From IMG/VR virus record IMGVR_UViG_3300030329_002091, positions 1 to 54,714 of that record: DNA of 54,714 nucleotides; one strand, written 5' to 3'. Numbering within the stretch: position 1 is the first letter of the stretch; each line of letters opens with the position of its first letter. The DNA comes from a virus. Taxonomy: Duplodnaviria; Caudoviricetes. Made by a program: the position numbers and the translations under genes. The notes beneath the pieces were generated by a model, which was not told the DNA's origin, did not search any database, and saw nothing but the letters and a program-made list of their open reading frames with translations. Shown here piece after piece: positions 7,923 through 9,982 of this stretch.

Positions 7923-8282
7923 ATGGGATATAAAATGGGATCACAATCCAGAACACCCTGGAAAGTAATAAAAAAGAAATTAGGACACGGTATATTAGGA
8001 GAAGCAAATAACGATGGTACTATATTCGTAGATAAAAGTATACCAAGTGGAAGTAAAAAAGAAAAAGAAGTTGTTGCTCATGAAGGAAAACATATGGATG
8101 ATATGCAATCTGGAGTTTTAGCTTATGGAGATGACTTTATTAGATATAAAAACAAAACATACCATAGAAAAGATGGTAAAATAAATTATAACGGCAATTG
8201 GCTTCCAGAAGGTAGCAAACAATTCCCTTGGGAAAAAGTGGCTTACAAAGAAGGTAATAAAGCAAAAAATCAAAATTCATGA
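7923..8282 (+). CDS. Small zincin-like metallopeptidase (HExxH)
   Basis: VVAHEGKH preceded by G-x-A-x-x-x-G-T-I-F-V and followed by PWEKVAY (candidate third ligand Glu); starts MGYKMG. Confidence 0.7.
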   Translation: MGYKMGSQSRTPWKVIKKKLGHGILGEANNDGTIFVDKSIPSGSKKEKEVVAHEGKHMDDMQSGVLAYGDDFIRYKNKTYHRKDGKINYNGNWLPEGSKQFPWEKVAYKEGNKAKNQNS

Positions 8283-9982
8283 AAAAAAGATCAGGTTTTA
8301 AATTAAAATCATCATTAAAATTTGGACAAAAATCAGCGTTTAAATTAAAAACGTATAATAGTCCTAATAAACAGAAAAGTCCAGTTAAACAAAATGCTGT
8401 GGCAGATCCAAATATAGCTAATCCTAAAACTAAAGTTGAGCATAGTACTCCTAGTGATAAAACGTACGAAATGTTAAAAGAATGGTTAATGACAACAAAA
8501 GGATTTAATCAAGAAGACGCTGATCACATGATCAAAGACGGTGCTTATACAATGAAAGACGTCATAAAAGACATGGGTATGGATAAAGATGTTCCAGCTG
8601 AACCAAAAGGTAAAAAATCAGAAGGTGCTCCAAGTAAACAACTAAAAGATAAAGGAAAAGAAACTGGAGAAACTCAAGAGACTTGGGAGCCAGCTTATGA
8701 AGGTGGTGATCATAGTTGGAAAGATCTTCAAAAAATGAGTGATAAAGATATAATGAAAAATTGGCCTGATGTTGGTAAACATATTATAGAAGATCTTCAT
8801 AAAAAAGGTTATAGAAAAAAGAAAGGAGAGGCTGGACCTTTAAGACAAGAAGGACCTATAACTAAAGAAAATATACCATCAATTGATGTAAAAGAAGGAG
8901 GAAGTGGCGCTTGGGTATATAAAGGTAGTAACTTACATGAAAGACTTAATGACTATGAAGATAGAATAGGATTTATCTTAGAAGATATTTGGGATAAACA
9001 ACCTGGACCTGCTAATGCGCCTGTAGACGAATCACACGCAACCCCAGAACAAGCTAAGGCTCTAAAGACATTGAGAATGGAAAGAGATATAATTCATAAA
9101 AGACTACTAAATCAAAGAGAAGGAAATATAAAACCAGGATATACAGAAGGCGAAAGAGATAAATCTAAAGATGAATCGTATGATAAAAAACCTCCATTGA
9201 AACAAACTAAAAATAAATTAAAATTAGATTTATCAAAGCCAGAAGATGTGGCTATAAAAGAAAGGATGATGGAGATGTTTGGAACTACTGATCTCGATGC
9301 TATATGGGAATATAATAAAAAACTTACGCGTTCTAAAAAGAAAACAAACAAAAAGAAAAACTTAACAAAAGATGGACATCTTAATTTAAGTTATTTCCAA
9401 TCAGACGAAGAAGGTCCAGATTTAACAAAAAAACTAATACCTTCAAAAAAAGCAGCTCCAAATAAACAAATAAATCCAGATAAATATAGAAACATGAGTA
9501 ATGAAGAGCTAAATAAAATTAATATTCATGATTTAGGTAAAGATAATTTTAGAGGAACTGCTGCTGAATATGTAAAAAAATATGGATTTACAAAAGATAT
9601 AATGAAGCATTTCGCTAAAGAACTTCCTAAGGCTGTAAAAAGAGGAGTTAAAAAATCAATTTCTCCAGAAGGAGTATTTGCTGTGCCTAAAGCTATCATC
9701 AAAACAGGTAAAAGATTTTTAGCTCCAACTAAACAAACTAAAAGCGGAAAAGGTAATATTTTTACAAAAAAAGGTAGAAATCAAAGAGTAGTCAATAAGT
9801 TTAATAAACTTGAAGATAAACAATTAAAAAGTAACGCTAAGTTAAATGAATATGGTACTGTTAGAGAGCTTAATAAATTTAGTAGAATAAGTAAAAGAAA
9901 GGATAAAGTAGAGAAAAAAATTCACAAAAAAGGATTAGAGCTAACTAGAAATAAAAAAGGTAAATTAGACTTTAAAAAATAA
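8279..9982 (+). CDS. Lys-rich modular protein (putative polyprotein) with seven P-x-[KR]-Q motifs
   Basis: SPNKQ, SPVKQ, APSKQ, GPLRQ, PPLKQ, APNKQ, APTKQ. Confidence 0.85.
   Translation: MKKRSGFKLKSSLKFGQKSAFKLKTYNSPNKQKSPVKQNAVADPNIANPKTKVEHSTPSDKTYEMLKEWLMTTKGFNQEDADHMIKDGAYTMKDVIKDMGMDKDVPAEPKGKKSEGAPSKQLKDKGKETGETQETWEPAYEGGDHSWKDLQKMSDKDIMKNWPDVGKHIIEDLHKKGYRKKKGEAGPLRQEGPITKENIPSIDVKEGGSGAWVYKGSNLHERLNDYEDRIGFILEDIWDKQPGPANAPVDESHATPEQAKALKTLRMERDIIHKRLLNQREGNIKPGYTEGERDKSKDESYDKKPPLKQTKNKLKLDLSKPEDVAIKERMMEMFGTTDLDAIWEYNKKLTRSKKKTNKKKNLTKDGHLNLSYFQSDEEGPDLTKKLIPSKKAAPNKQINPDKYRNMSNEELNKINIHDLGKDNFRGTAAEYVKKYGFTKDIMKHFAKELPKAVKRGVKKSISPEGVFAVPKAIIKTGKRFLAPTKQTKSGKGNIFTKKGRNQRVVNKFNKLEDKQLKSNAKLNEYGTVRELNKFSRISKRKDKVEKKIHKKGLELTRNKKGKLDFKK

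Follow-up and report, generated by a model that had tools for sequence, protein, structure and literature searches.

Can a tailed phage encode a true polyprotein, a string of mini-proteins cut apart at a short repeated motif? The question is raised by an open reading frame (ORF) of 567 amino acids (aa) at positions 8279..9982 (+ strand) of the IMG/VR virus record IMGVR_UViG_3300030329_002091, a stretch of 54,714 bp that was analyzed at its full length and is called the window hereafter (CheckV completeness 93%, G+C content 32.6%). A sequence-only reading of this DNA had described ORF 8279 (ORFs are named by their first position; its product is P0001 in our protein set) as divided into six segments by P-x-[KR]-Q motifs, and had proposed that it is a polyprotein of concatenated mini-proteins. 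The motif-divided ORF is real and was confirmed in our analysis. It is also well supported that six small helical modules, each folding independently, are fused in ORF 8279; in sister phages such modules are separate genes of ~70–290 aa. Whether the protein is cut at the motif by the product of the adjacent ORF 7923, a candidate metalloprotease, is a more delicate matter: the adjacent HExxH gene, the division of a leader peptide into two parts and the analogy with phage T4 lead us to consider this proposal evenly balanced.

The product of ORF 8279 is rich in lysine (107 residues, 19%) and carries seven P-x-[KR]-Q motifs, ending at residues 32, 38, 121, 190, 309, 397 and 486. These positions and the contexts quoted for them agree exactly with the sequence-only reading, and its segment lengths of 83, 69, 119, 88, 89 and 81 aa follow from them. 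A lysine content this high could favor a chance or low-complexity artifact, the other trivial explanation being an assembly chimera. However, in 5000 composition-preserving shuffles of ORF 8279, the motif occurred 0.20 times on average and three times at most, and no shuffle contained seven. Furthermore, homologs from many other contigs keep the motif at the same boundaries, and multi-module homologs of 366–593 aa exist independently (P0003–P0011). We therefore consider this explanation to be already refuted. Within the window, the 47 listed ORFs (17,619 aa) contain 16 P-x-[KR]-Q motifs in total, and four Lys-rich ORFs account for 12 of these: 8279 (7), 534 (2), 2863 (2) and 1182 (1). Following leaders of 18 and 23 aa, respectively, the motifs split ORF 534 into 97 + 98 aa and ORF 2863 into 60 + 117 aa, as had been described. 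Self-BLASTP of ORF 8279 gave no internal pair at E < 1, in agreement with the claim that the six segments show no mutual similarity. A paralogy outside the ORF had been overlooked: ORF 534 has in its C-terminal half a paralog of the last segment (M6), the two being 60% identical over 48 aa (E = 3e-11) in an alignment that begins exactly at [SA]PTKQ.

Structure prediction provided a second view of these boundaries. The AlphaFold2 model of ORF 8279 (42-row alignment, mean predicted local distance difference test value, pLDDT, of 67) has a sharply bimodal profile, in which six folded helical cores are separated by low-confidence linkers. The N-terminal leader region (aa 1–38, GFKLKSSLKFGQKSAFKLK...SPNKQKSPVKQ; 8279..8392, + strand, as for all the features of this ORF) has a net charge of +12 and is predicted to be disordered; it includes motif 1 (PNKQ, aa 29–32; 8363..8374) and motif 2 (PVKQ, aa 35–38; 8381..8392), both within a segment with pLDDT < 50 (aa 24–43). 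The M1 core (aa 57–105, LKEWLM..KGFNQEDADHMIKDGAY; 8447..8593) consists of three short helices and is followed by motif 3 (PSKQ, aa 118–121; 8630..8641), in the low-confidence segment 106–129. The M2 core (aa 130–184, WEPAYEGGDHSWKDLQKMS...; 8666..8830) precedes motif 4 (PLRQ, aa 187–190; 8837..8848; segment 185–193), and the M3 core (aa 194–295, EGPI..N...WVY.G...ER..D.EDRI.FI.EDIW; 8858..9163), a long helical hairpin, precedes motif 5 (PLKQ, aa 306–309; 9194..9205; segment 296–312). The M4 core (aa 313–353; 9215..9337) is formed by two helices and is separated by motif 6 (PNKQ, aa 394–397; 9458..9469; segment 354–400) from the M5 core (aa 401–461; 9479..9661), which is weaker and of moderate confidence. 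Motif 7 (PTKQ, aa 483–486; 9725..9736; segment 462–489) leads to M6 (aa 490–567, TKSGKGNIFTKKGRNQR...; 9746..9979), the folded block of which has a net charge of +19.

Block pLDDT values of these cores were 55–70 for M5 and up to the mid-90s elsewhere. The remaining segments below 50 were aa 1–6, 11–14, 20–22, 45–56, 402–405 and 417–422, giving 190 of the 567 residues below this value, and all seven motifs fell within low-confidence linkers, with one or two per linker. Structure prediction had been proposed as a test for independent domains, and the model does predict six separate folded units. Lysine accounts for 18–29% of the linker residues, except in linker 2, which has only nine residues, and the M1–M3 cores are slightly acidic to neutral. 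Cutting at the motifs is predicted to yield products of 8.0–13.5 kDa. No known fold or family was recognized: a Foldseek search of PDB with the complete 567-aa model had no match below E = 2.4, the ESM Atlas gave nothing usable for M3 (best feature score 0.76), and Pfam and PHROGs returned no family at E ≤ 0.01 for P0001, four stand-alone modules and three long homologs.

Evidence for a fusion also comes from the homologs. A full phmmer scan of 1.84 billion representatives with ORF 8279 identified 69 metagenomic proteins at E ≤ 1e-3 (26 at ≤ 1e-10 and 11 at ≤ 1e-30), on which the six query segments were placed by BLASTP. Single modules make up 49 of these proteins, M3 being the most frequent (26), followed by M2 (11), M1 (7, including P0051, P0063 and P0070) and M6 (5). 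The other 20 contain several modules, in orders that include M1-M2-M3 (4), M1-M3-M2 (2), M1-M3-M6 (3), M1-M2-M2-M6, M1-M6-M6 and M2-M2. Segments 4 and 5 had no partner at E < 1e-3 among the 69 homologs, apart from one match to M5 that reached into M6. Searched separately, as the sequence-only reading had advised, segments 1, 2, 3 and 6 are thus found as stand-alone leader-bearing genes (~100 aa) and in other orders. The homologs do not align collinearly across motifs that they have lost; their module orders differ and the motif is kept at the module starts. An IMG/VR scan with the single protein P0001 gave no match, but an alignment-based scan did find related loci, described below.

A Q directly precedes the module in 37 of the 48 alignments that extend to the module's first residues, and P.[KR]Q does so in 25, as in FGNSPAKQ before EGPIDKK or KMKSPAKQ before TKSGKGN. 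The 11 exceptions to the Q are mostly M2 alignments that extend upstream into the preceding linker. The 143 distinct sites in relatives read S(99)-P-[A44 N24 L20 M12 T10]-K(137)-Q, with K, T or E as the next residue, and this composition does not correspond to S-P-[KR]-[KR], the SPKK-type DNA-binding repeat. The M3–M4 junction is instructive, in that stand-alone M3 genes end in ...YG.KGPLGV and the fusion reads ...YDKKPPLKQ, suggesting that the motif was made at the junction and not inherited from the leader of the next gene.

In stand-alone genes, the leader is ~15–20 aa long and consists of two parts, a MAFKMKG-type peptide followed by [SA]-P-x-K-Q. The homologs of ORF 8279 begin with MAFKLKSALKFGQK, ORF 8279 itself having GFKLKSSLKFGQKSAFKLK; the start M[AGT][FY]K[MLQ][KR] was found in 47 of the 69, and a leader-like peptide within the first 24 residues in 56. 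In the fusion, the MAFKMKG-type part is present once, at the N-terminus, and [SA]-P-x-K-Q stands at every module boundary. The internal junctions mostly lack FK.KG, and only one of the five has something resembling it (GYRKKKG before PLRQ). The two halves of the leader therefore behave as separate signals, FK.KG being used once per polypeptide and SPxKQ once per module, as expected for a targeting tag and a cleavage site, respectively. Thus, of the earlier proposal of a true polyprotein of concatenated mini-proteins, the concatenation has been borne out by stand-alone genes, shuffling and the AlphaFold2 model, whereas cleavage itself is something that we infer.

The leader is not confined to ORF 8279. 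Seven ORFs in the first 8.3 kb, all on the + strand, share the start peptide: three with MAFKMKGS, namely ORF 534 (534..1175, MAFKMKGSYHYGKNPLKQ...), the Lys-rich product of which has two motifs and the M6 paralog as its C-terminal half, ORF 1767 (1767..2090, MAFKMKGSHHYGKNPLKH) and the Lys-rich ORF 2863 (2863..3465), with the motifs SPVKQ and PPLKQ; ORF 1444 (1444..1749), with MAYKMKGPAFFKSALK; ORF 2092 (2092..2832), with MAYKQKPPLFFKTSIK, probably the true start of the 2035–2832 frame; ORF 7136 (7136..7921, MAYRQKKPTFFGSALKQ), with MAYRQKKPTFFGSALK, directly upstream of ORF 7923; and ORF 7923 itself, with MGYKMGS. Together with ORFs 8279 and 46868, and with ORFs 1182 and 6950, which have related leader elements, the family comprises 11 genes and 2051 aa, or 11.2% of the genome, and the isoelectric point (pI) lies between 9.3 and 11.4 in 10 of the 11 members. 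ORF 1182 (1182..1442, +), encoding a Lys-rich product of 86 aa, has SPVKQ at aa 14–18 and the leader variant MIYQKLPGIYR (compare P0053). ORF 46868 (46868–47128; leader MAFKMRGFTPFTQK...) lies far from the others, after a gene for a 3724-aa protein, and its product is acidic (pI 5.3) and has no motif. ORF 6950 (6950–7135, 61 aa) consists of almost nothing but ...SPMKNYKNPQDYEIFNMGNKATPVKKKKKY; its NYKNPQDYKVFNMGNKP.P.K element also stands between leader and module in P0045, P0051, P0063, P0064 and P0039, and to judge from these sequences it appears to be a second, longer leader extension.

The leader-bearing and cargo genes are tightly packed on the same strand as the GroEL/GroES, holin, TerL, portal, scaffold and capsid genes, which is a late-gene context. 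A scan of positions 1–13100 for sigma-70 promoters and terminators gave the same numbers as shuffled sequence (56 vs 51 and 6 vs 5.2, respectively). A scan with the exact leader, written as degenerate DNA, matched at least 120 further stretches of IMG/VR, and 346 distinct leader-bearing ORFs were collected from 147 loci. An explanation of the leader at the RNA level was rejected, since the variants MGYKMKG, MTFKMKG, MAYKQK and MAFKLRSG keep the class of the residue and not the codons. A literature search for the strings AFKMKG and MAFKMK found no occurrence.

Which protein could cut at the motif? The candidate is encoded by ORF 7923 (7923..8282, +; 119 aa), a leader-bearing gene (MGYKMGS...) the stop codon of which overlaps the start of ORF 8279 (ATGA). 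It contains an HExxH sequence, HEGKH, at aa 53–57 (8079..8093, +). In an alignment of 14 sequences (ORF 7923 and 13 relatives from other contigs), H53, E54, H57, M61, Y68, D70, R82, G85, G91, E96, G97 and E104 were invariant, D70, E96 and E104 being candidates for the third metal ligand. A profile search of PDB sequences returned only the minigluzincin selecase (MJ1213), with E = 0.0034. The AlphaFold2 model (pLDDT 84, predicted template modeling score 0.71) was compared with known structures by Foldseek, the best matches of which were PprI/IrrE, abylysin, selecase and SPRTN (E 0.085–1.8, ~55–70 columns), and by VIA, which gave PprI (Z 6.5), two Mycobacterium tuberculosis regulators with the same domain, ArdC, lugdulysin, SPRTN, CapP, the VgrG2b effector domain, abylysin, selecase and Wss1. 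The list consists almost purely of zincin peptidases, with weak scores, and the ESM Atlas likewise gave weak leads to SprT-like, Zn_peptidase_2 and M78 proteins. ORF 7923 resembles the minigluzincins (selecase MJ1213, abylysin), SprT/Wss1 and ImmA/IrrE/PprI in its size of ~110 aa and in a beta-strand followed by the HExxH helix; it differs from them in the C-terminal half of the model (the beta-hairpin region and the final helix), which is unmatched. With moderate confidence, as far as the model and these comparisons go, ORF 7923 is a mini-zincin.

Neither Pfam nor PHROGs contains a family for ORF 7923. Its own family includes 1849 clusters at E ≤ 1e-3 in a collection of 5.8 billion proteins, many of them from ocean surveys, and the best 120 of these clusters have no Pfam domain and no informative name. 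Among the window ORFs scanned with Pfam, there was no canonical prohead protease, and the sole other peptidase was of the M15 type (51660–52154, E = 1.5e-12). This M15 peptidase is more likely to be the endolysin of the phage; it lies with a gene for a staphylococcal-nuclease-like protein (E = 1.4e-8) at 51115–52154, at the end of the + strand block. We rejected ORF 7923 as an endolysin, because the M15 peptidase is encoded; HExxH zincins are not the usual type of cell-wall peptidase. Complex prediction for ORF 7923 plus Zn with the linker-motif-M3 segment (alignments A2 and A1, respectively) gave, in a run without controls, a score of 0.01 against a mark of 0.32, and speaks neither for nor against binding. 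Two loci have a longer protease gene of 195–196 aa (L007:670-1254 and L031:6575-7162), in which the leader is followed by an extra 50-aa segment, GKP[LF]KQ and then the catalytic domain, an arrangement resembling a motif-bounded propeptide. Another leader-bearing gene (L018:4428-5435, 336 aa, MAFKLRSGNKARFK...) has a different HExxH context (IHEGAHAV) and cannot be aligned with the ORF 7923 family; from its sequence, it may encode a second packaged metallopeptidase in some members of the clade.

The genomic setting links ORF 7923 to the module genes. The scan of IMG/VR with an M3 alignment yielded 29 related loci, which belong to one clade (TerL 68–86% identical to that of the window) and have a common gene order: w3504, GroEL, GroES, ..., w6513, the HExxH gene, a variable slot, the holin, ..., TerL, portal, scaffold and major capsid protein (MCP). 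In the relatives, the slot between the HExxH gene and the holin (9986..10378, +; phrog_3427, E = 1e-32), which is its downstream border, holds zero, one or two leader-bearing genes of 71–289 aa, mostly with one module, and in the window it holds the 567-aa fusion. The HExxH gene is in the same place in 25 of the 29 loci; two of the misses are contigs that end just there (L010 and L011, the near-twin L012 having the gene), and the other two (L009 and L020) lack both the gene and the holin. Among the 120 leader-pattern loci listed, 115 share homologs with the window (TerL 69–92%), and 75 have an ORF of the HExxH family, which carries HExxH in 74 cases, the exception being a 50-aa end fragment. 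Directly upstream of the protease slot, ORF 6513–6953 (146 aa) is exceptionally well conserved, with 86–94% identity in 19 of the 21 loci in which it was found and 69% in the other two, the neighboring genes being variable; it has no Pfam or PHROG family.

Protease, leader and motif are also absent together. The nearest GenBank relative, MW202828.1, which is complete, lacks leader ORFs and SPxKQ and gave no match to the protease family at E ≤ 10, and the same three elements were absent from the 42 of 59.8 kb examined of Flavobacterium phage elemoF. The loci L009 and L020, without the protease, contain no P.[KR]Q, yet neither do L014, L015 and L032, which have the protease. L009 and L020 are more divergent (G+C 42–44%), with the w6513 homolog followed almost directly by the w11746 homolog, and their leader-bearing genes (MAYKQPTNSF..., MAYKRKEFTAHDG...) lack SPxKQ. 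The joint absence amounts to one clade against outgroups, and thus to one or two evolutionary events and not many. No covariation was seen between protease subtype and motif type, since a divergent subclade (22 loci) also has [ST]-P-x-[KRQ]-Q after the leader.

These data bear on an alternative in which the protein is cut at the motifs by a host enzyme or another phage enzyme, and ORF 7923 cuts a defense or repressor protein, in the manner of ImmA/IrrE/CapP, or is a DNA-dependent protease of the SprT/Wss1 type. The structural neighbors of ORF 7923 are indeed regulatory site-specific and DNA-dependent proteases (PprI/IrrE, CapP, SPRTN and Wss1), and the ESM Atlas leads to SprT-like and M78 proteins point, weakly, the same way. 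However, ORF 7923 has the same leader as its putative substrates, is translationally coupled to ORF 8279 and occurs, or is missing, together with leader and motif, and Pfam finds no protease other than M15 in this 93%-complete genome. We regard this alternative as improbable.

A further question is where processing would take place. The scaffold-like Lys/Glu-rich protein encoded between the portal and capsid genes (17668..18816, +) has a C-terminus (DFKFKFKGKKNK) that resembles the leader: it contains [FY]K[FIVLM][KR] in 19 of 19 distinct homologs, in the form DFKFK[FI]K.K, like the MAFKMKG leader. This likeness of the scaffold tail, the absence of a canonical prohead protease (Pfam) and the leader on the HExxH protein fit processing inside the procapsid. 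A location of the modules inside the capsid is plausible, although we hold it to be somewhat less so than the cleavage itself. About 35 aa upstream of the scaffold C-terminus, M-[DNSEQ]-P-R-Q-[SAT]-H was found in 13 of the 19 homologs, the protease-less outgroups having MSESRA (MW202828) and MGMRRA (elemoF) at the same position; read from sequence, this element could be where the scaffold tail is released. The N-terminus of the MCP (aa 1–25) reads ...LNSVALPQRQ before TLSTNY, and in the MCPs of the clade (loci L004–L152) a Q, often within AP.[KR]Q, was seen by eye directly before TLSxNY in 22 of 24 (16 of 17 fitting the regular expression); this motif could mark the removal of an 18–25-aa propeptide.

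The modules might instead have a late intracellular role and not be virion cargo at all, acting for example as cationic envelope-disrupting lysis factors, nucleoid proteins or host-takeover proteins. Their strongly cationic nature and the position of the variable slot, between the HExxH gene and the holin, would suit such a role, and cationic lysis peptides are known in other phages. However, 11 genes with 2051 aa are far beyond the needs of lysis, some members lie far from the holin (534–3465 and 46868), the cores of M1–M3 are acidic to neutral, and the likeness to the scaffold tail points to the procapsid. A role of this kind therefore seems to us hardly more than a slim prospect.

Several observations weigh against cleavage of a packaged polyprotein by ORF 7923. 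All the loci belong to one phage clade (TerL 69–92%), so the co-occurrences of protease, leader and motif are not phylogenetically independent. The structural matches of ORF 7923 are weak and concern mainly the half with the strand and the HExxH helix. Zincins usually select hydrophobic P1' residues, and a zincin that cuts a Lys-Gln or Gln-X site would be unusual. We had considered the MCP N-terminus as a further substrate and rejected it as evidence, since MW202828, which lacks the protease, carries PSPQQ there as well; the APxKQ-like element of the MCP cannot therefore be counted as support. Tblastn of P0001, P0003, P0036 and ORF 7923 against 50,697 GenBank phage records gave no match, and by this method the Cellulophaga and Flavobacterium phages lack the family. 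In the 346 leader-bearing ORFs, the residue after SP.K is Q at 47 of 128 sites, the others being K, M, L, F, D and so on; this is 14 times the background frequency of Q (3.3%), yet it is not universal, and many family members would therefore need another site or would not be cleaved. Similarly, P.[KR]Q was found in only 17 of the 149 ORFs with the exact MAFKMKG leader. Finally, stand-alone M2 genes have GP.K at their own C-terminus, with nothing downstream, where a binding motif fits as well as a cleavage site.

The last of these points, like the incomplete conservation of Q, is also what the principal competing explanation would predict, namely that ORF 8279 encodes an uncleaved 65-kDa fusion arranged like beads on a string, FK.KG and SPxKQ being short linear motifs that bind, for example, the inside of the capsid, the portal, DNA or a host factor. 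The FKFKIK at the scaffold C-terminus looks like a binding tag and not like a cleavage site, and the Lys-rich disordered linkers are as expected for flexible tethers that bind DNA or protein. This explanation has more difficulty with the distribution of the two signals: a single targeting motif would suffice, yet SPxKQ is kept at every junction, both in the window and in the multi-module homologs, and FK.KG has mostly been dropped. It also does not account for the conversion of the GPLGV-type C-terminus of M3 into PPLKQ in the fusion, and it leaves the HExxH gene beside the slot without a role. We consider an uncleaved fusion a serious contender, but one with clearly the smaller share of probability when set against cleavage at the motif by ORF 7923.

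If the preferred proposal of cleavage is followed, the components could act as follows. The N-terminal MAFKMKG-type part would target the protein to the assembling procapsid, the scaffold-like protein of which ends in a similar FKFKIK; the [SA]-P-x-K-Q elements would be the cleavage sites; and the co-transcribed, leader-bearing mini-zincin ORF 7923 would cut at them. The released mini-proteins of 8–13.5 kDa would stay with the packaged DNA and might be ejected into the host.

A close parallel is provided by phage T4, in which the internal proteins' targeting sequence is removed by gp21, a serine protease with the site L/I-x-E. One account describes the T4 internal proteins as diverse, with only a capsid targeting sequence in common, encapsidated via the scaffolding core and contacting DNA through lysines (PMC3012670). 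As with the T4 internal proteins (IPI–III and the variable IP genes of T-even phages), a short conserved N-terminal peptide is found here on unrelated, fast-changing, small basic proteins from a hypervariable locus, the protease would be assembled along with them, and processing is presumed to occur at the end of the targeting peptide. There is no sequence relationship to T4 (Pfam and PHROGs gave nothing for P0001, the modules and ORF 7923), so the analogy is functional only. The system in the window also differs in its candidate enzyme, a 119-aa HExxH zincin, in its putative site, [SA]-P-x-K-Q, and in that several cargo modules can be fused; packaging and cleavage are putative here.

Other viruses offer partial parallels. 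Two reports on the giant phages phiKZ and SPN3US indicate that head maturation involves cutting at a short consensus in many of the head proteins, paralogous internal ones among them (PMC7411985, PMC10052503). Their protease is of another class and their motif is different, and the proteins concerned are large and not strings of ~10-kDa modules that are also found singly. The giant-phage cleavage motif is A/S/G-x-E. Outside the phages, adenovirus pVII and pre-Mu are cut by the packaged DNA-dependent protease AVP, and African swine fever virus (ASFV) has the polyproteins pp220 and pp62. In these dsDNA viruses, a viral protease packaged in the virion acts at a short consensus on basic DNA-associated precursors or true polyproteins, but the viruses are eukaryotic, and their cysteine proteases are unrelated in sequence. 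In crassviruses, finally, ~5.5 MDa of cargo proteins are stored by crAss001 in its capsid and tail, according to PMC10172136, and the main text of that paper makes no mention of cleavage, proteolysis, protease or scaffold. The phage studied here resembles crassviruses in a match to the muzzle C-terminal domain and in the giant ORFs after its tail genes; as regards the cargo proteins gp45 and gp46, P0001 has no match in Pfam, which includes crAss families, no direct comparison with gp45/gp46 having been made.

TerL (13024–15240) is 62% identical to that of the uncultured podovirus MW202828.1 and ~45% identical to those of the Flavobacterium "elemo" phages, and the TerL search matched 87 records, with Cellulophaga, Tenacibaculum and Maribacter phages among them. 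The GroEL-bearing "group 2" marine Bacteroidetes phages are treated by Nishimura et al. 2017 (PMC5332604), and our phage, which encodes GroEL/GroES at 3818–5627, fits this group as far as its TerL relatives indicate. The portal and MCP genes are at 15243–17639 and 18832–20301, respectively. Two giant ORFs follow, one of 2108 aa (23202–29528), with a Pfam match to the crAss-type muzzle C-terminal domain (27.6 bits vs a cut-off of 27), and one of 3724 aa (34968–46142), with only a sub-threshold match to a HAD-like hydrolase (25.1 bits vs a cut-off of 26.4); both may, as in crassviruses, be proteins that are ejected or located at the tail end. A gene for a B12-type ribonucleotide reductase (52816–54702, − strand) runs off the end of the contig.

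True polyproteins typify RNA viruses, together with a few dsDNA viruses of eukaryotes. Proteolytic maturation is known in tailed phages, but we know of no tailed phage in which unrelated mini-proteins that are also encoded singly have been strung together. Head maturation by proteolysis and internal proteins targeted by a leader are familiar, and the new elements would be a metalloprotease in that role and a shuffled mini-protein polyprotein in a tailed phage. By similarity searches, the modules, the leader and the protease family are absent from Pfam, PHROGs and the GenBank phage records searched.

In its fullest form, which we put forward as tentative and rather speculative, our reading is that an abundant, uncultured clade of marine podophages of the Flavobacteriia type would have a head-cargo system made of new parts. 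These would be a universal MAFKMKG-type tag that copies the capsid-binding tail of the scaffold, a packaged 119-aa zinc metalloprotease, the first for phage head maturation, and rapidly shuffled mini-proteins of ~10 kDa, either encoded one per gene or released from polyproteins by cutting at [SA]-P-x-K-Q. The mini-proteins would accompany or condense the DNA and, once injected, act as effectors of host takeover or anti-defense, so that the system would be comparable, among phages, to the adenovirus core and to the internal proteins of T4. It would extend well beyond one contig, given the 1849 clusters of the protease family and a leader pattern in at least 120 IMG/VR stretches. If this is true, an address tag and a cleavage site would be available for abundant marine phages, such that virion cargo could be predicted from sequence alone, and a new minimal protease with a defined site would be added to those known. 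The hypervariable cargo locus would then probably be a record of the arms race between these phages and their Flavobacteriia hosts.

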